Below, in pieces: positions 5,057 through 35,217 of a stretch of 35,217 bases of DNA (position 1 is its first letter; each line of letters opens with the position of its first letter). The notes beneath the pieces are model-generated. The model was not told where the DNA came from, made no database searches, and worked only from the letters and a program-made list of their open reading frames with translations. This DNA comes from Asterionella formosa (lineage: Eukaryota). The DNA lies in the NCBI GenBank assembly GCA_002256025.1, contig NKIB01000108.1, forward strand, positions 1-35,217, in the 5' to 3' direction. The position numbers and the translations under genes are program-made.

Positions 5057-6634
5057 ATGAGTGTGGCTACTACTGAACAAAGTACGAATGGAGGAGTAGC
5101 AATGCCAGAGACTAGGGATATATATAGCAACGACCGACCTGCCGATGATCCACTTCTGACGGAGCCATCACAGTTGGTACGTGAGGGCGACTGGGTCATC
5201 CTTGCATTTGCTGATGGTCGTAGAATCTTTGCTCAATGTCTCAGAAATCCCCGAGGCAAGTCACCCTCTGTCAGAATTCAAAAACGATGTTACCCTACAC
5301 ACAACATAATTGGCTTGTCCTACGGGACTGTACTCGAGCAAGGCAAGTCAAAACTAATACCACTCGGACATGAGGAGGACCTAATGCCAGAGCTACCTAC
5401 CCCATTTTCTGCCGAAGAGCAAGATACAACACCAACGTCCATAGCTTTGGTTCAAACCAACGACAATCGACACTTGGTCGATACCAACTCGTCGCAATCT
5501 ATGAACCAAGACGCCATTTCCAAGTTGCGATCAGAAGGGACGGAAGGATCAGCCATTGTTGCTGCCTTGATTGAGAATTCAGCGACATTCGATCAAAAAA
5601 CAGAGTTTAGCAAGGCTAAGTATATTGCTCGAAAGCAAAAAAAGTACCAACCGCGTTGTCGTGTGGAGAGGTGTACTGGGTTGACCATTTGTGAAGCTCT
5701 GTATATCAAAGATGCAAAGAAGATTATGAATCTGCGAGAAGATACTCTTGGGCAGATCTTGTCATATGCGAATGTATCTGCTGGTTGTCAGGCTCTGGTA
5801 TTTGAGACTTGTTTGGGGATTATAACGGGAGCGTTGGCCCAACGAATGGGAGGGTACGGGAAGATTTTGTCGGTCTACACTGGACAACAGCCAGCTTGGA
5901 TAGATCAACTCGATCGTTTCAATTTATCTTTTACCGAACAGCATTCCATAAAATGGGTACATGGCGAAGACGTATTTGGTACAGAAAAAGATAAAGAAGT
6001 TGCGGACGACGATCCAGAAGCAACCGACAGAGATTTGCTTGAATGGCCTTGTCCACTACAAGATCATACTCGTAGTTTCTTAGACAAAGTCACAGATCCA
6101 CTTGAAATCAAGGAACTTTTGGCGAAACGATGTGATAGGTTCGCAAGAAAGTTAACTCGAACATCCCCAGGAGAAGCCAAAGCCATGTTGAACAAGAGGC
6201 CTTCTGACTGTGTCATTATCGCTTCAAAAAGTGACCCAACAGAAACATTGCTTGGCATGATGCCATTCCTTGGTACATCTTGCCCTTTCGTTGTATTTTG
6301 TGAATTTATGGAACCTCTATCAGAATGTTTTATGGAGCTTCAGAAGCAAAATCTAGCTATCAACCTTCGACTCAGTGATACTTGGTTCCGAGAATATCAA
6401 GTGTTGCCTGGAAGGACTCATCCAAACATGACTATGAGCCAGAACGGCGGTTTCATTCTCACTGGAATAAAACTAGATCCTGTTCTCGGTGTAAATGATA
6501 TGGACGAAGATGAGAGAAAAAAAATCCGTGATCAGATGGGAGGCAGACGCGGAAAGAGTAAGTCTCAACGAAAGAATGAGAAACAGTCTGAGGAAGGTGA
6601 TCGTGGACGAAATAAGAAAGCGCGGATAGAGTAG
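5057..6634 (+). CDS. TRM6: tRNA (adenine-58-N1)-methyltransferase non-catalytic subunit TRM6/Gcd10
   Basis: Diagnostic motifs DNRHLVDTNSSQ, LIENSATFDQKTEFSKAKY..RKQKKY, LREDTLGQILSYANV and WFREYQVLPGRTHPNM. Single exon, first ATG at 5057. Confidence 0.93.
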   Translation: MSVATTEQSTNGGVAMPETRDIYSNDRPADDPLLTEPSQLVREGDWVILAFADGRRIFAQCLRNPRGKSPSVRIQKRCYPTHNIIGLSYGTVLEQGKSKLIPLGHEEDLMPELPTPFSAEEQDTTPTSIALVQTNDNRHLVDTNSSQSMNQDAISKLRSEGTEGSAIVAALIENSATFDQKTEFSKAKYIARKQKKYQPRCRVERCTGLTICEALYIKDAKKIMNLREDTLGQILSYANVSAGCQALVFETCLGIITGALAQRMGGYGKILSVYTGQQPAWIDQLDRFNLSFTEQHSIKWVHGEDVFGTEKDKEVADDDPEATDRDLLEWPCPLQDHTRSFLDKVTDPLEIKELLAKRCDRFARKLTRTSPGEAKAMLNKRPSDCVIIASKSDPTETLLGMMPFLGTSCPFVVFCEFMEPLSECFMELQKQNLAINLRLSDTWFREYQVLPGRTHPNMTMSQNGGFILTGIKLDPVLGVNDMDEDERKKIRDQMGGRRGKSKSQRKNEKQSEEGDRGRNKKARIE

Positions 6635-24070: not shown

Positions 24071-27002
24071 CTAATCTTCTCGTCGGAAAAGGGACTGATG
24101 TACGTGGTTAAATATTCTCCCTGTGTCATGGACGTACAAATTGTAGGTTTCGTCGTCGTTGGTTGATTCTACCCTGGCGTTTCTATACTCCTGCCCGAGT
24201 AAAAATTGGAGTTCTTCGCCAATCTCGACCGGACGATGCCGACGAACATCTCCGACTCCCATTGTGTCGAAAGTTCCGTCCTGGAATGATATGGAGAACA
24301 AACCCTGACTAGCGATCTTGGTGACGGTTCCCATGTACCAATGTGCTACTTTTCTTGATTCCTTGTAGTAAGCTTCAACGATATCGCCTGACTTGATCCA
24401 AGCACCAGCTCCTGGCTCCTCAGGGAGGTCACCAGGATGGAGGGCGACTGGACGACGAACATGTTTGGCACTGCTTACCGGTCTCTCAAGTGTAAACAAG
24501 GAAGGGAATGGAGTAGCGGCACCAATCTTACCGCTATCGCCGAATCGAACCATAGACTTAGTATACTTGAGCTCCAAGGATTCGCCGAGAATTTTCTTCT
24601 TCATTTCTTCAAGGAACGGCTTTGTTTCAACCTGGGCCATGGCTGTCTCGCGAAGGTAGCCGTATTTTGACTCGGAAATCAAATGGTCGATCTTGGAAAC
24701 AATTGCCTTGATGACAGGGTTCGAATTGATTTTCAGTTGAAGTGTCGCATGTTTTACGGAATCTTTTGCTGAAATCCAAACCCAATGTGAATCTGGACTT
24801 TGATACAAGAAGCGTCGGGACTCGGCAAGCATGGTACTGACAGCGAATTCGGCGACAGCGTTTCGGAACAGATCGTCCGAATAACCTTTATAGATGGGAA
24901 TCACGGCATCTAAAACGTCCTTCCATACGAGGTTTCCTGGATGACCAATATTGATATAGTCCCTGTACATGGCCAAATAATCGGAGTTGTATCGCGTATC
25001 AAGGAGAATATCAGTGCGGTGTGGGAATGTAGTAGGACCCCCGTAATCACTGTCCTCGACTCCAAATGGCGATGTGTACAAGCGTCCAGCGTTCAAGTCT
25101 TTGGCCCACTGAGTGTTGTCGACATGGTTGTTGGCAGCCTTGTAAAGTCCATAAACCAGAGCATGACTAATAAACACTCTAATCATTGCCCAAAAGAAGC
25201 GCCCGAATGAAGTGCGCTTGTTATCACTGAGAATGAGAGAAAAGATCATGACGATAACCTGAATAATAATATAACCAGCAATGATGCCTCGATGTACAGA
25301 TTTGGCAAAGTTCTCGCAGTTGATAAGCGTGTACAGGTAATATTCATGCCAGCCCTCGTCCCCAGAAATATTGCCATGTAAAAATTTTGGGATCTCCTTG
25401 AATCCACCCTTCTCAATCAACTCTTCAAGCTGATCATCTCTGTATCCATGGTCTCCGTTCGCGATTCTGTGAGTTGATCCAGTAACAAAATCAATACCCC
25501 AATCCGCATTCTTGGGTTTGTACAGGCCAAGGGCACGAAGTGTCGCCCAGGGTTGCGTCATGGCTGTGTCTGCGTTGGCCAAATCACCCAGGGTGTGGCC
25601 CCACATATCCCAGCGGAGTGAAAATGTAATTCCTTGGGACAACTGACGACTTTCCGCCCGAGTCCTAGGTTTAGGAACGAATGTCATTATCATCATAACG
25701 CGGTCAGGGGCATTGGGATCGGTGTGACCAGCCCCACGATGCCAAGTATTCATATTCATCAACATGGCGTCTCCAAGTCTCCAGTATTCATCTTTGTTGA
25801 CTACTTGAAATCCATCGCTATCGCAATATGTGTCCATCGTTCCATCTGCGCACATTTGTGATCCCGGACAGGCCGACGTTGCACCCATTTCCTTCGTTGT
25901 GTTTTGAAGTTGAATGAAGATAGAGTAGGAGGGGCCGAAAGCACGTCCAAACTGCAGGGCTGATGCTCGAGAAACTACATCGTCGTGCCAGTACTGATCA
26001 ACAGCTCCGTAAGCAGCAGTGATAGCAGTCATTTCGATTAAGGCAGGATTAGGACCGAGAATCTTTTCCAATGCTGGCTTCAACCGAGCATGCCTAGCGA
26101 GCTCCTTGACAGCACTGACCAGTGATGGCTCTTCTGTTCCCAATCCAAAGGAATATCGATTCTGATTATTGATAACATAGATAGCTTCATCGTCAGTCAA
26201 ATTACGATTCCTTGACACGATGTAGTCGCGAAGATTGGTTGCCGTCTGCTCGGACAAGACGTTGGGGAATACAGTCATACCATGCTTCAACTGATGCGCA
26301 TACGCTTCGTCGGGCGTTGCGTCTTCCGGCAAGAACAAGTCGGCTGGATGACGTGTCGTCAAATCTTGAGAATCACAGTAGCGTTTGTAATAAGTCGTTT
26401 CATGATATGCTCGTTCCTTTGTCCACTCAAGATTTTCAAATTGTTTTTGAAAGTACAAGTCGTTGAGGCGGTGTGTCCAAACAAGGCCGAGGTAAATGGC
26501 AAAAACCATGGCCAAAGGTGTGTCCAAAATAATGGTACGAAAGAGAATCAAAATGATGTTTACGACGCTGTGCCTTTGGACGGGTTTGCGAACTGCATTG
26601 GGGACAATAACAGATTTCGTGCTGCAATTCTCGGAATCCTTTGTTGGGACCTGCCTCGAGGAGTGCACATCTTGAGGTTTCGCCTCCATCCCGACATTAG
26701 AATTATTTTGCAAAGCATTCAATGCAGCCTGAATGGATGGACTTTCTGCGGAAACAAAGGGGCACATTTGAATGTACTGCTTCAAAATGTCTACATCATC
26801 CAAATGTTCGCTTTCCATTTGAAGCTGTGAAAAGGCTGTCATGGCAATGCGCATTGCGACCCGAGTTACCTCTCCGTCAGTGATCTCCTTAGTCATCCTG
26901 TAGATATTGAAGATTGAAAATGAGTATGAAGAGCGTTCACGGCAGCATTCCAAATTCTTCGACTTGAAATGGAACAGATGGAACTTACGGTGCAGTCTCC
27001 AT
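24071..27002 (-). CDS. Multi-pass membrane protein with PhyH-type 2OG-Fe(II) dioxygenase domain, DUF6824-like segment and C-terminal Tudor/Agenet-like repeats; exons 27002-26989 and 26897-24071
   Basis: QYWHDD (HxD), SIFIQLQNTTKEMGATSACPGS and WHRGAGH..R motifs, hydrophobic spans, TDILL...HPGN...RFL motif, and GDIVEAYY...WYMGTV...FQDG. A 14-nt first exon (METAP) is joined via a GTAAGT..CAG intron. Confidence 0.8.
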
Positions 27003-30419: not shown

Positions 30420-31031
30420 TGTATGATATCACTGATTGCACAGTAGATAACGAAAAGCAATATACCCGGTACCTGGTTAGTAAATTGTTTTATTTGAAGC
30501 AGACGTATTCATGGGTGTCGTATATATTTGTACCATTAATGCATAGTAAGTAACAAAAATGTTTATTTACCATTTTTCAAGTATGGGGTATGGTACCGGT
30601 ACCTGGGTGGAGCACAGAGTATCAGAGGTACTGGGACCACCATACTGTGCCAGGTACCGGTACAAGGTGGTACCAGGTGTCTACGACCGGTATTGGATTG
30701 AACGAAAGAGGAAGGGAAGAATGAGACGAACAAAAATCACCTCTTTACTGATACCACCTGGTAGAGTCTACTGTACCTGCTACTGATACTCCCATGAGGA
30801 CAACTCATAGTAATTATAAATTACAGGTGTACTGGTAGAATACTGGCATGTAGACGACTATCAGTAGAATACCATGTATTGATTGCTTTCTCATCGATGT
30901 AGCTCATGCTGGTGCTGGTGGCCCTCAAAAGCAACGATATTCCACCAAGCAGGGGAGGGGCATCAACATCCTCCGTCCTGTTCCCACGTCGCCGCCAATA
31001 ATCATCACGGCATTATTGTTCAGGGCGAAGC

Positions 31032-32186
31032 ATGCATACTTTAGGATTGATTTTTCTGCTTTGTTCAGCGGCATCGTCCTTGCGTTCGACCAAGATTACC
31101 ACCAAGAAGATTGACACGCATAGCTTGTCTAGTAGAGATTTGATGGTGCAGAATTTCCACGTTTGCAAACAATGTGGTTCTAAATTCAACTCGAGGAATG
31201 CACTGTTCCGACACGTGAGGAGTGAACATGTTTCCTGGGGACGCAAAGAACAAGCAGAAATTGATGGACAATTGCCACCTCGAAAAGTTGCTATCTATCT
31301 CGGGTACATGAACAATGTGACCGAGGCGATTGAGTGGTTGAAATATTCCTTCATATCTGCGATTCCTGATGTCAATGATGTTGACGCTAGCCATGCAACT
31401 GGGAAGGTCATGGACGAAGACTTCGGTGCGATTGTTGAAATGGTTACCTTTTCTTACAACAGTCGATATCAAATATCGCCTAACTTTACTGATGTAATCA
31501 ACGAGAGCCTACCTGAATTTGTAAAAGCATTGCAAGTCACTGAGCTTTCGCCAAAATCTAGACTTGACCCCGAAACCAGTTGCACTCAATTCATATACCA
31601 CTATCTCTTGCCTTTATCGTGGCTAACTCTTGGGCAAGAAACAGCTTCGTGGTGGCTTCAAAAAGAACGAAGTGAAAGCAATATTAGGGGTCACGTATCA
31701 AGAGCCAATGCGAAGCCACCTCTTTTGAAAAGATTGAAAAAGGTCCTCTCGTCGCTGGAGGCCAAAGGCAATCGGACTTCAAAACCGGCAAAATCAGGAA
31801 GGTTTGGAGCGCTAGTCAACATTCCGCGCTTCTCGTTTCATAATTACGAATCAAGTGGTACTAACGTTTGGAAGTCAATCGATAGGCTTCAAGTTGTCGA
31901 TTTCATCTCGTCTGGGGATCGTGTGTCCGTGGTAATTGAGTTGAGGGGTGACTCACCGCTTCCTGTTCGCCGCATAATTGGGTCGGTTGTGGCAATTGTG
32001 CAAGAATGGCTACCAGAAAACTTTTGGGAATTATCAACCCAGCCTGGTATACCTGTAGATGTGCCGCTGGCACCACCTTTTCAATTTATGGCAGGTTGCC
32101 GATATGATTTCGAAGAAGTTAGACGGGGTCAAAAAATGTTTAATGAAACTGAAAGGATGATTCGTTGGACGAAATTACTTCACGAG
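31032..32186 (+). CDS. N-terminal part: signal/transit peptide, C2H2 zinc finger and TruA-like pseudouridine synthase fold (runs into N gap)
   Basis: CKQCGSKFNSRNALFRHVRSEH zinc finger. TruA-like motifs KVAIYLGY, CTQFIYHYLLP, FHNY, IELRGD, VRRIIGSVV and PLAP. No canonical RTD catalytic motif is visible. Confidence 0.72.
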
Positions 32187-32701
32187 NNNNNNNNNNNNNN
32201 NNNNNNNNNNNNNNNNNNNNNNNNNNNNNNNNNNNNNNNNNNNNNNNNNNNNNNNNNNNNNNNNNNNNNNNNNNNNNNNNNNNNNNNNNNNNNNNNNNNN
32301 NNNNNNNNNNNNNNNNNNNNNNNNNNNNNNNNNNNNNNNNNNNNNNNNNNNNNNNNNNNNNNNNNNNNNNNNNNNNNNNNNNNNNNNNNNNNNNNNNNNN
32401 NNNNNNNNNNNNNNNNNNNNNNNNNNNNNNNNNNNNNNNNNNNNNNNNNNNNNNNNNNNNNNNNNNNNNNNNNNNNNNNNNNNNNNNNNNNNNNNNNNNN
32501 NNNNNNNNNNNNNNNNNNNNNNNNNNNNNNNNNNNNNNNNNNNNNNNNNNNNNNNNNNNNNNNNNNNNNNNNNNNNNNNNNNNNNNNNNNNNNNNNNNNN
32601 NNNNNNNNNNNNNNNNNNNNNNNNNNNNNNNNNNNNNNNNNNNNNNNNNNNNNNNNNNNNNNNNNNNNNNNNNNNNNNNNNNNNNNNNNNNNNNNNNNNN
32701 N

Positions 32702-33820
32702 GTGTCGCATCGCGTTCCTTCTACCCATTGTGCAATTAACTTAAATGCTGAATTCACTCCACATCTTGACAGTGGTAGTCGAGGTGGAAATGACGTTTCC
32801 TTGATTGTCGGGATTGGCAACTTTGAGGGTGGAAATTTCGTCGTTGACGGTACATCCCAAAACATTAAGCATCGCCCGCTGGAATTTGACGGATGGAAAC
32901 AATGGCATTGGACTGAGTCGTTTCAAGGTGATCGAATTACCCTTGTATTCTTCACGCCAGAGTTGCGAAATAAGTACAGTCATCGAGATTCAAGCAGTGT
33001 GACCGCGTACTCCCAACATTTGATCCAAACCTTTGCGGACCAAAGGAGAATGCCAACTATTCAATTTCGAAGTGATAGTACAGACACTCTCGTAATTCAG
33101 GAAATTCTGGAAGGACTGTGCGTCTACAACAGCTGCCCCCAATTGGGTCCCAATCGAGCAGATTTTTCTCCTCAGGGTCATGTTGTTTTGGATATTGGTG
33201 CGCATATTGGTGTGTTTTCATGGTACGCTCTGGGTGAAGGATGCAAACAAATCATTGCGTTTGAGCCTGAAGAGCATAACTTTGATCTCCTTACCAAGAA
33301 CATGCTAAGCTTTGAAAGCAAGGTTTTAGTTCGCCAGGCAGCCGTCGCCCATGGGGGCTTGGGAACACGAGTATTCGTCCTGGGAAGCAACAATCAACGG
33401 GCTGGCACCATGAACACTTGGCGGCACTCGCTTTTAGAGTATTCGACGTACAGCGACGCTGGAGAGCATTTCGTTGTAGACTGTGTCCCTTTCTTTGGCC
33501 CATATGGGGTGTTGACCGACAAAGTCACGTTTGTAAAACTTGATTGTGAAGGGGCGGAGATGGATATTCTTGTTGCGGACGAATGTTGCGATGGAAGGAA
33601 TTGGGCGAATGTAACACGACTCGTGGTCGAATGGTCCTTCACGAAGAATCGAAGCACAACCATGTTTCATCGGGCAATCCAAAATTTGCGACAAGCTGGG
33701 TTTGATGTGCGCTACGAAGGGCAGGGAGCATGGTGGGATACATCATTGACAGGGAGCTGGCCGTATCACAACGATTTATTGGTGTTTGCGCTTCGCAAGT
33801 CACCATTCGGCTTAGAGTGA
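32702..33820 (+). CDS. C-terminal part: 2OG-Fe(II) dioxygenase domain directly fused to an FkbM-family methyltransferase (probably the same gene as 31032-32186)
   Basis: A single open frame from the gap to TGA at 33820. It contains CAIN.N..FTPHLDSG (HxD)...FDGW..WHWT..F.GDR.TLVFF (H, R), then VLDIGAHIG, AFEPE..NF and VKLDCEGAE. Confidence 0.8.
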   Translation: MSHRVPSTHCAINLNAEFTPHLDSGSRGGNDVSLIVGIGNFEGGNFVVDGTSQNIKHRPLEFDGWKQWHWTESFQGDRITLVFFTPELRNKYSHRDSSSVTAYSQHLIQTFADQRRMPTIQFRSDSTDTLVIQEILEGLCVYNSCPQLGPNRADFSPQGHVVLDIGAHIGVFSWYALGEGCKQIIAFEPEEHNFDLLTKNMLSFESKVLVRQAAVAHGGLGTRVFVLGSNNQRAGTMNTWRHSLLEYSTYSDAGEHFVVDCVPFFGPYGVLTDKVTFVKLDCEGAEMDILVADECCDGRNWANVTRLVVEWSFTKNRSTTMFHRAIQNLRQAGFDVRYEGQGAWWDTSLTGSWPYHNDLLVFALRKSPFGLE

Positions 33821-33961
33821 TGATACATTATTGCATATTGTCTAAAACTGTAGATAGAAGTAGTCTACTAAAATGTTGTGGGCGGGTGATAGTGCGTGTG
33901 GGTGCTAGAGTAAAATAAAATTGCAAGAAAAATCGTCGAGACTCTCTCCCTTTTAACAGTT

Positions 33962-35034
33962 TTACATGGTGATTCCAACACCGTACATGAAATCAGTCAT
34001 ATCGGATGCAACAATGGATCCTGAGAGAGTCAAGGTAACCTTAGGAGCAATGTCTTTGACAAGACACGCAGAAACAACTCCACCTGAGGCAAACTTCGCC
34101 TTGACCAAACCAATTGGTGCCTTGTAGGCCGCTCCAACTCCCAAGCAGTCGCATACCTTGGAGGATGAGTGAGTGGTCTGGGAGGCCAGAGTCAAGTCAT
34201 TGTTCACCTTGTAGAGGACACCAAGATTGAATTGTGCAAACTTGGAGGAAGTAGTAACTGACGCGAACACAGGTCCTTTAGCGTAGCTCGCCCCAAGGTT
34301 CATGGCGGTAATGCCAGTCTTTCCCGCGAGTGCGTAGGTGGCATCTCCTCCCAGTGTGACGCCGCTAGCAAGTCCGAAGCAAGCAGACGTGCTAAACTTG
34401 GACATGTCCTTGACATCGAGGACGCCGGTAGCGAAGAGAGTTCCCTTGGTGTAGTCGATTCCTAGATCAGCGCCTTTGTTTCCCTTGAAGGTAAGTGCGA
34501 CTCCAGGAGCCGCCTTGTAGGACGTCTCCAAGACGTGTCCACCGTCAGCGGCTGCTTGAAACTTATCGAAGGAAAGGCCAGAGTACGCAAACTTCGTTCC
34601 AACCTTAGAGGAAAGTGCTCCCTTCGATCCTCGTTCAGTCTCTATGGTGACAGCAACTGGGCCAGCGTCCTTCTTGCACTTGAGGCTGATTTTGTTGGTG
34701 TAGTCATCGCTCAAGAGGTCTGTATCGTTGAGTTAGTGCAGGAATGTGAGTTAAGTGAGCTGAGGCGAAGGTTCCGTCGGGCGAGGTGCTTGGATAAACG
34801 GGGGACGGATATGAGTCACAAAACTGGCAGCCTCGAAAACTTAGTGTCGTATAGTTTTAGCTGTCTCTACGCATACGTGCAGTGCAGCATTGCTCCCTCC
34901 TGATACAACCACTACCGGCATATTCATTCCGCTGCTTCACTTGCAAATTGCACCCCTTCCCATCCACCCTCTCTCTCCTATTTGTTGTACGCACCCTTGG
35001 GGCCCTTGGCAATGTCAGCGAACTTGGTGGCCAT
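33962..35034 (-). CDS. VDAC: Mitochondrial porin / voltage-dependent anion channel; exons 35034-34995 and 34719-33962
   Basis: Spliced N-terminal helix MATKFADIAKGPKDLLSDDY, alternating amphipathic beta strands, VKAK motif and terminal beta-signal MYGVGITM. One 275-bp GT-AG intron. Confidence 0.92.
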
Positions 35035-35217
35035 GGCTACAGTAATTAATGTGATGTTTGTTCAGCAACAACGGTGAATCTATGATCAAAACCGTAAATC
35101 TGGTGATATTCTGGTTGACACCAAAAAAACACAAAGGACAGGGGGTCAGGCGAACGAAACACGTACACACGTCAGCTCCGAGTATTTTGATTTTACCATA
35201 TTCATATTCAAGTATAT

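Follow-up and report, generated by a model that had tools for sequence, protein, structure and literature searches.

Does the run of N near the end of one diatom contig hide the middle of a single multi-domain enzyme, and what would such an enzyme do? The contig is NKIB01000108.1 of Asterionella formosa (assembly GCA_002256025.1), and its positions 1 to 35,217 on the forward strand, 35,217 nucleotides in all, form the window analysed here. An earlier reading of the letters alone (the sequence-only reading) had placed a signal peptide, a C2H2 finger and a TruA-like domain upstream of the gap, and a 2-oxoglutarate (2OG)-Fe(II) dioxygenase followed by an FkbM S-adenosylmethionine (SAM) methyltransferase downstream of it, and had joined them all in one organelle-targeted polypeptide. 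Re-reading of the open reading frames (ORFs) in the window finds every one of these elements where it had been placed. The gene that carries them is real and conserved, and it encodes an uncharacterised enzyme of a kind that had been anticipated bioinformatically. With a probability of about 0.55, we read its product as a plastid-bound RNA multi-enzyme in which hydroxylation would be coupled to methylation.

One intron-free gene across an assembly gap

The 5′ ORF begins with an ATG at 31032 and stays open to 32186, giving 385 residues (P0001), and the 3′ frame is open from 32702 to a stop codon at 33818-33820, giving 372 residues (P0002); between them lies an assembly gap of 515 N (32187..32701). 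To bridge it, contigs from public sequencing runs were aligned to window positions 30900-33950. Three contigs, X2 (RNA-seq metatranscriptome, 3530 nt), X7 (polyA RNA-seq, 2473 nt) and X4 (DNA, 5162 nt), pass through the gap, each replacing the N run by 388-389 letters. The true content, 388 bases and shorter than the stated 515, encodes residues 386-514 and supplies the first base of codon 515, and the frame is kept throughout, with 1155 + 388 + 1115 = 2658 bases, or 886 codons. A fourth contig, X5, has a 30-letter loose end at 32186 that translates to the next ten residues of the near-identical proteins described below.

When longer relatives of the N-terminal half were sought, P0003 was found, a protein of 886 residues that matches the query over its full length at 99% identity and includes the FkbM domain. 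Its cluster at 90% identity has 11 members, and we compared nine proteins of 886 residues, P0003 and eight others, found in independent JGI, ENA and Logan assemblies on contigs between 2.7 and 25.6 kb long. Relative to the two halves in the window, the nine show 1-3 differences in 385 residues and 1-4 in 372. In the bridging contigs and in the 886-residue proteins alike, the gap content holds neither a stop codon nor a new start, which bears out the claim of a single polypeptide. The arrangement is one nuclear gene on both sides of the gap, encoding 886 residues.

Two other arrangements were considered. The in-frame 388-389 letters of X2, X7 and X4 rule out a stop within the gap or a division into two genes, and an intron in the gap is ruled out by the equal length of the DNA and RNA-library contigs there. 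Because these contigs agree over the gap and no further joint is found along the gene, the whole coding sequence (31032..33820, + strand, 886 codons) is taken to be intron-free. At the downstream gap edge, residue 515 is Leu in all nine cluster members and Val in the window, and the bridging contigs rejoin the window at 32703; base 32702 is probably a gap-edge assembly artefact.

All or part of the stretch is contained in 20 contig rows, eight of which are recorded as RNA and come from five studies, mainly of lake or freshwater metatranscriptomes, which suggests that the gene is expressed. A query of JGI metagenome contigs returned six loci, of which the best reaches 48% identity and none comes close to being identical with the gene. 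Single-base differences separate the window from the lake and freshwater contigs at 31188, 31259, 31775, 33097, 33907 and other positions, and the near-identical proteins depart from the window at, for example, N53D, V546I and G652R; the differences look like those between alleles or strains of natural populations.

Four folds behind a plausible presequence

An AlphaFold2 model of P0003, built with a 57-sequence alignment of relatives (A1), reaches a mean predicted local distance difference test (pLDDT) score of 86.5. Its largest domain, at residues 80-385 (31269..32186, + strand) and continuing to about residue 417 within the gap, is a Pus1-type pseudouridine-synthase-like domain. Structural comparison by VIA-align places human Pus1 (4iqm) on model residues 81-417 with a Z score of 26.5 and a root mean square deviation (rmsd) of 3.0 over 280 aligned residues, followed by yeast Pus1 (Z 25.1), E. 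coli TruA (Z 18.6) and PUS3 (Z 16.9). Foldseek gives a match at E 1e-15, and the family profile, run against PDB sequences, finds Pus1 at E 2.5e-15. The Pfam family PF01416 is not matched on P0001 (E ≤ 1) or P0003 (E ≤ 5); among the 57 relatives, 41 match it at E ≤ 0.1, with scores such as 27.9-30.2 bits against a cut-off of 23.3. The window domain and Pus1 share a fold over about 280 residues, a set of aligned motifs and an acidic residue at the catalytic position; the window protein differs in lacking both the RTD motif and a PF01416 match and in being fused to two further enzymes, and its activity is predicted only.

That catalytic position is where the sequence-only reading has to be revised. 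It had proposed a dead TruA-like module lacking the RTD motif with its catalytic Asp, which would present a plastid tRNA base for hydroxylation and then O-methylation to a methoxy-type nucleoside. The motif is indeed literally absent, being replaced in the family by x-Q/M/L-[D/E] with neither Arg nor Thr conserved; the loss of the Asp itself is not supported by sequence alignment. In three HMMER alignments, the catalytic Asp of Pus1, human as well as yeast, and the Ala that replaces it in the human mutant entry 4nz7 fall, with high posterior probability, in the family column of Asp128 (D128; codon 31413..31415, + strand). D128 is invariant in the clade of five orthologues that includes the window protein, although its neighbours vary, and across the 57 relatives the column holds Asp in 16, Glu in 37 and another residue in four (P0026, P0035, P0040 and P0063), so that 53 of 57 are acidic. 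The Pus1 motifs Tyr-x-Tyr-LLP and HNF and the Q-V/I-R-R/K-x-V-G helix also align with the family profile by HMMER, and most relatives keep their residues (Y189 and Y191 in 54 of 57, H270 in 52, N271 in 54, R313 in 46 and R314 in 50). A comparison of the family with E. coli TruA by hhalign covered the C-terminal 63 columns only, at a probability of 8%, and is uninformative on the catalytic loop.

Since conservation of D128 and of the Tyr, HNF and Arg residues is not what one would expect of a dead pocket, the Pus-like pocket looks maintained, and we consider the dead-scaffold version unlikely. Beyond the missing RTD motif, it can draw on the want of any PF01416 score in the window protein's own sequence, on the long branch of the clade (1.42), on FkbM enzymes being O-methyltransferases, and on Pus-like proteins found in an assembly intermediate of the trypanosome mitoribosome. 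At the level of sequence alignment, an intact catalytic Asp stands against it. The trypanosome proteins, chains 6sga_FB/FC and 9hny_FB/FC of the mitoribosomal small-subunit assembly intermediate, match the model at Z of about 17; by analogy, proteins of the Pus fold may serve as ribosome assembly factors, and the target here could be ribosomal RNA (rRNA).

The 2OG-Fe(II) dioxygenase domain runs from about residue 423 to 608, starting inside the gap, and its C-terminal half (residues 515-605; 32702..32974, + strand) lies in the window's own letters, with codons for H535-x-D537 at 32762-32770, for H583 at 32906-32908 and for R592 at 32933-32935. H535 is found in 57 of 57 relatives, and D537, H583 and R592 are each found in 56, the lone exception being P0063. 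The domain model (pLDDT 92.2; predicted template modelling score, pTM, 0.89) has a double-stranded beta-helix fold that matches 50 chains at Z ≥ 8, of which ranks 1-32 are all 2OG oxygenases and ranks 33-50 include bare cupin-fold proteins. The top structure is NgTET1, at Z 11.9 and rmsd 2.9 over 147 aligned residues with 19% identity, and PiuC, TET2 and AlkB homologues lie within about 1 Z of it. In a Foldseek search CcTet occupies ranks 1-10 (E 6e-6), followed by ABH2, NgTET1 and CMD1, and in the BFVD viral library phage and giant-virus proteins labelled “JBP1/TET oxygenase domain” come out on top (E 1.8e-7).

TET/JBP enzymes are thus nearest in all three structure searches, and they share with the window domain a compact double-stranded beta-helix, the HxD...H residues and an Arg on the last strand; the window domain differs in its low identity (13-19%), in Z scores tied with those of other 2OG families and in its RNA context. 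Because Tet_JBP (PF12851) is matched neither on P0003 nor on the 57 relatives, we call the domain TET/JBP-like without assigning it to that family. As leads only, an ESM Atlas search with residues 400-610 scored best, at 0.83, to unnamed phage clusters, with Tet_JBP clusters and 2OG-FeII_Oxy_3 clusters at 0.76-0.79. A search for short stand-alone relatives returned 10 matches, all of them fragments of the same family; being word-based, it may miss bacterial or phage relatives.

The C-terminal module is an FkbM methyltransferase. Its core (residues 678-849; 33191..33706, + strand) matches PF05050 at E 3.7e-14, with 53.7 bits against a cut-off of 22.7, and the NCBIfam model TIGR01444 at E 8.5e-15, with 55.5 bits against 37.7; the structural domain extends over residues 604-886 or so, reaching window position 33817. 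The FkbM structure 2py6 is matched by Foldseek at E 1.4e-6 and aligns at Z 11.6 over 163 residues; other class-I methyltransferases score Z 11.3-13.4, equal to it or above, so FkbM cannot be told from them by its fold alone. The FkbM family motifs D-x-G-A-x-x-G, FEP and K-L/I-D-x-E-G-x-E can be read in the domain. Against these family scores, well over their cut-offs, stands a difference in setting: known FkbM members are stand-alone O-methyltransferases of polyketides and sugars, whereas this one sits at the C-terminus of a protein whose context is that of an RNA enzyme.

Ahead of the Pus1-like domain lies a C2H2 zinc finger (residues 43-66; 31158..31229, + strand), with C45, C48, H61 and H66 in the spacing C-x2-C-x12-H-x4-H. 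Pfam zf-C2H2_4 is matched on the window protein at E 0.0019 and 19.2 bits, under its 27-bit cut-off, and in 47 of the 57 relatives at E ≤ 0.1, and the AlphaFold model has a beta-beta-alpha unit with strands at 43-44 and 51-52 and a helix at 55-65. Pfam, structure and profile evidence together show that the four domain calls of the sequence-only reading, namely finger, TruA-like, dioxygenase and FkbM, were right.

At its N-terminus the protein has a signal-peptide-like hydrophobic stretch, MHTLGLIFLLCSAASSL (residues 1-17; 31032..31082, + strand), modelled as a helix at residues 3-15, after which the model is disordered with pLDDT below 50 at residues 15-38. The stretch that follows (residues 18-42; 31083..31157, + strand) is rich in Ser, Thr and Lys and net basic, and could function as a transit peptide. 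The bipartite plastid presequence of diatoms, with its ASAFAP-type cleavage motif, consists of a signal peptide followed by Phe, Trp, Tyr or Leu at position +1 and a transit-peptide-like stretch. We applied a home-made rule, crude and uncalibrated, to those relatives, 41 of 57, whose N-terminus is complete: ten residues of which at least seven are strongly hydrophobic and none charged, then [AGSCT]-Phe within the next 25. A hydrophobic region is found by this rule in 30 of the 41, and [AGSCT]-F after it in 23 (for example AASS|F, PIYS|F, TISA|F and YATA|F), some of which may fall inside the hydrophobic region; we take the pattern to be the ASAFAP motif. By the same rule the window protein is hydrophobic from residue 1 and reads AASS|L at the predicted site, where its closest orthologues read AASC|F and AASS|F. 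The organelle presequence claimed earlier is plausible on this evidence, and because an RNA-type enzyme behind a signal peptide would hardly make sense elsewhere in the secretory route, we consider a plastid location rather probable.

Relatives of the protein and neighbours of the gene

The protein belongs to a large diatom and pelagophyte family of finger-Pus1-dioxygenase proteins. A search with its C-terminal half among 1.84 billion representatives returned 427 proteins at E ≤ 1e-10. Among the 150 matches listed, 23 span both dioxygenase and FkbM (query start ≤ 7, end ≥ 300), and most of the others cover the last ~85 residues of the dioxygenase only, at their own C-terminus; such relatives without FkbM are about 700-800 residues long and consist of finger, Pus1-like domain and dioxygenase. 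In the alignment of 57, FkbM is present in 19, and the Pus-dioxygenase pair stands without it in 38. Named diatom members come from Thalassiosira pseudonana (XP_002288342.1, “predicted protein”), Conticribra weissflogii, Cylindrotheca closterium and Attheya sp., a further diatom member is in a record whose organism name begins “Aulac”, and pelagophyte members come from Pelagophyceae sp. CCMP2097 and Chrysophaeum taylorii.

In a maximum-likelihood tree made from the shared region by a quick search, with support from the Shimodaira-Hasegawa-like approximate likelihood ratio test (SH-aLRT) only, the window protein falls in a 100%-supported clade of five with a stem length of 1.42. The presence of FkbM follows the tree, requiring 6 changes against a shuffled mean of 16.1, with 0 of 500 shuffles as low, in a label that may count some truncated rows as lacking FkbM. 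The starred branches force at least three label changes, and a single origin of the fusion is not resolved.

Two members depart from the common plan. P0063 (952 residues), whose N-terminal half is not homologous and which sits on a long branch of the tree, carries an AlkB-type domain (PF13532, E 8.6e-16, residues 205-388) instead of the Pus1-like module, followed by a TET-like domain that lacks D537, H583 and R592 and then by FkbM; in this protein one nucleic-acid oxygenase seems to have replaced the other. In P0044 (1058 residues; Chrysophaeum taylorii KAJ8600017.1), a further class-I methyltransferase at the N-terminus (Methyltransf_16/25, residues ~61-207) precedes the Pus1-like domain, dioxygenase and FkbM, so that one protein has two methyltransferases.

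Iyer, Tahiliani, Rao and Aravind, in Cell Cycle in 2009, reportedly described a family of algal dioxygenases as predicted RNA modifiers with diverse fusions, a prediction made without experiment. By that account the fusions resemble those of the window family, and the two are probably the same family. Within the article texts searched, no paper was found on the finger-Pus1-dioxygenase-FkbM architecture or on the T. pseudonana accessions, in line with the earlier statement that no characterised enzyme of such architecture was known. PMC2938197, which touches on algal 2OG-Fe(II) dioxygenases and pseudouridine synthases, concerns another family, going by its matching passages. Papers found on 2OG-Fe(II) dioxygenases and RNA in stramenopiles, going by such passages too, do not deal with this family, nor, by title and abstract, do those listed as citing the 2009 article.

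The scaffold around the gene is eukaryotic and nuclear, and the neighbours encode a porin and Gcd10p/TRM6-type, HMG-box, glutamine cyclotransferase and SKN1/KRE6-type proteins. The porin, a eukaryotic one of the VDAC type (PF01459, E 8.1e-19; 33962-34714, − strand), lies tail-to-tail with the gene, and an ORF piece at about 35000-35040 (− strand), read by eye, may be its first exon, with an intron between. A protein of the Gcd10p family (PF04189, E 1.4e-59), which provides the tRNA m1A58 methyltransferase with its non-catalytic subunit, is encoded at 5057-6634 (+ strand); it is an RNA-modification gene unrelated to the fusion gene. A 941-residue ORF at 24071-26896 (− strand) has a weak PhyH match (E 1.7e-4, 22.3 bits against a cut-off of 22) and may be another 2OG oxygenase. 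Further N runs lie inside ORFs at about 18.6 kb and 22.4-23.1 kb, and the scaffold has several unclosed gaps.

From architecture to a proposed function

The single gene, its four folds, the conserved metal-, 2OG- and SAM-binding residues and the family membership are the established parts of the reading we prefer. From them we infer where the protein goes, that RNA is its substrate, and the order and chemistry of its steps. The bipartite-looking presequence would send the protein into the complex plastid, where the finger and the Pus1-like domain would bind, select and open a structured RNA, either tRNA or rRNA. With D128 and the other active-site motifs in place, the Pus1-like domain may have kept the capacity to flip out a uridine, and perhaps to isomerise it. 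The TET/JBP-like dioxygenase would then hydroxylate a base or a base methyl group, and FkbM would methylate the nucleotide so modified or one next to it, the new hydroxyl being the simplest site.

A nucleic acid, probably RNA, fits the domain context, in which the oxygenase is partnered by Pus1-like or AlkB-type modules; P0063 argues for such a substrate because it has AlkB in place of the Pus module and one nucleic-acid oxygenase in place of another. The order of the two later steps, first hydroxylation and then methylation, is suggested because 38 of the 57 relatives lack FkbM, so that the oxygenase would have a substrate independent of a fused methyltransferase, and because FkbM enzymes are O-methyltransferases.

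The closest characterised analogue in logic is ALKBH8, an animal enzyme of the tRNA wobble uridine in which an RRM, an AlkB-type dioxygenase and a Trm9-type methyltransferase act sequentially on one nucleotide. Like ALKBH8, the window protein is a single polypeptide in which a module for RNA binding is followed by a 2OG-Fe(II) dioxygenase and then by a SAM methyltransferase, so the domain order is the same. It differs in having a Pus1-like domain for the RRM, a TET/JBP-like domain for AlkB and FkbM for Trm9, with no homology over the whole protein, and in its presequence and C2H2 finger. The RRM/AlkB structure of ALKBH8 (3thp) aligns with the dioxygenase domain model at Z 8.6, and the RRM, AlkB-family and Trm9-type Pfam families are unmatched on P0003, so the likeness is one of architecture and logic only.

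Several points weigh against our preferred reading. In the literature searched, no experiment or paper was found that links any family member to RNA, to a nucleoside or to a compartment, and the RNA-library contigs show presence and are no proof of transcription. FkbM enzymes are known for acting on small molecules and sugars, not on RNA. To our knowledge, no characterised pseudouridine synthase has Glu at the catalytic position, which is the residue in 37 of the 57 relatives. By the crude, uncalibrated rule, which is not ASAFind, the residue at +1 after the predicted cleavage is Leu and not Phe; published rules tolerate Leu there. The dioxygenase matches no Pfam family of the 2OG group on P0003 (E ≤ 5) or in the domain shared by the 57 relatives (E ≤ 0.1), and its Z of 11.9 to NgTET1 is tied with those to FTO (11.3), AlkB (11.0) and prolyl hydroxylases (10.7-10.8).

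A bolder form of the preferred reading would have three active modules working on one plastid tRNA or rRNA site: D128 would flip and perhaps isomerise the uridine, the oxygenase would hydroxylate it and FkbM would cap the hydroxyl. We hold this form to be rather unlikely. If it were true, the product would be a nucleoside of the methoxy- or hydroxylated-pseudouridine type, not yet described in any organelle, and the diatom paralogues would amount to a site-specific toolkit of plastid RNA hydroxylases.

The steps might also run in reverse, with a methyl group or methyl ester first placed on an RNA base by the methyltransferase and then oxidised by the TET-like dioxygenase to a hydroxymethyl, formyl or hydroxylated side chain, much as in ALKBH8, whose methyltransferase acts ahead of its oxygenase. 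The nearest structures, TET and JBP, oxidise 5-methyl groups of pyrimidines, and one relative, P0044, has a second, class-I methyltransferase. This order has to contend with the 38 relatives in which the Pus-dioxygenase pair lacks FkbM and the oxygenase must therefore find a substrate without a fused methyltransferase, and with FkbM-type enzymes not being known to methylate carbon 5 of pyrimidines, and we accord it little probability.

A DNA target, in the plastid or the nucleus, would make the protein a TET/JBP-like base oxidase guided by its C2H2 finger. C2H2 fingers often bind DNA, and the top structures (NgTET1, CcTet, TET2, CMD1 and phage JBP1/TET) are DNA enzymes; yet the largest and best-conserved partner of the oxygenase is a Pus1-type RNA enzyme, and there is one finger only. 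In addition, zf-met, a finger type that binds RNA, is matched in seven of the 57 relatives (E ≤ 0.1), and the family of P0063's AlkB-type partner acts on RNA as well as DNA. We regard a DNA target as very unlikely. Still less credit goes to a protein or small-molecule target, for example prolyl hydroxylation with the Pus-like and FkbM parts in an unrelated role, since prolyl hydroxylases lying within 1.2 Z of the top structure, and FkbM enzymes that act on small molecules, must be set against a fusion to Pus1-like or AlkB-like modules that is conserved over diatoms and pelagophytes and against nucleic-acid oxygenases ranking first in all three structure searches.

We therefore return to the plastid-bound RNA multi-enzyme and to what it would mean. 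In diatoms, the fusion of a Pus1-type RNA module with a TET-like oxygenase defines a protein family that is large and conserved and seems to be expressed. Should its members work in the plastid, a major group of marine and freshwater primary producers would possess an RNA hydroxylation chemistry that is missing from current maps of RNA modification, and the FkbM-bearing branch, to which the Asterionella protein belongs, would be a second, independently assembled case of the ALKBH8 principle.

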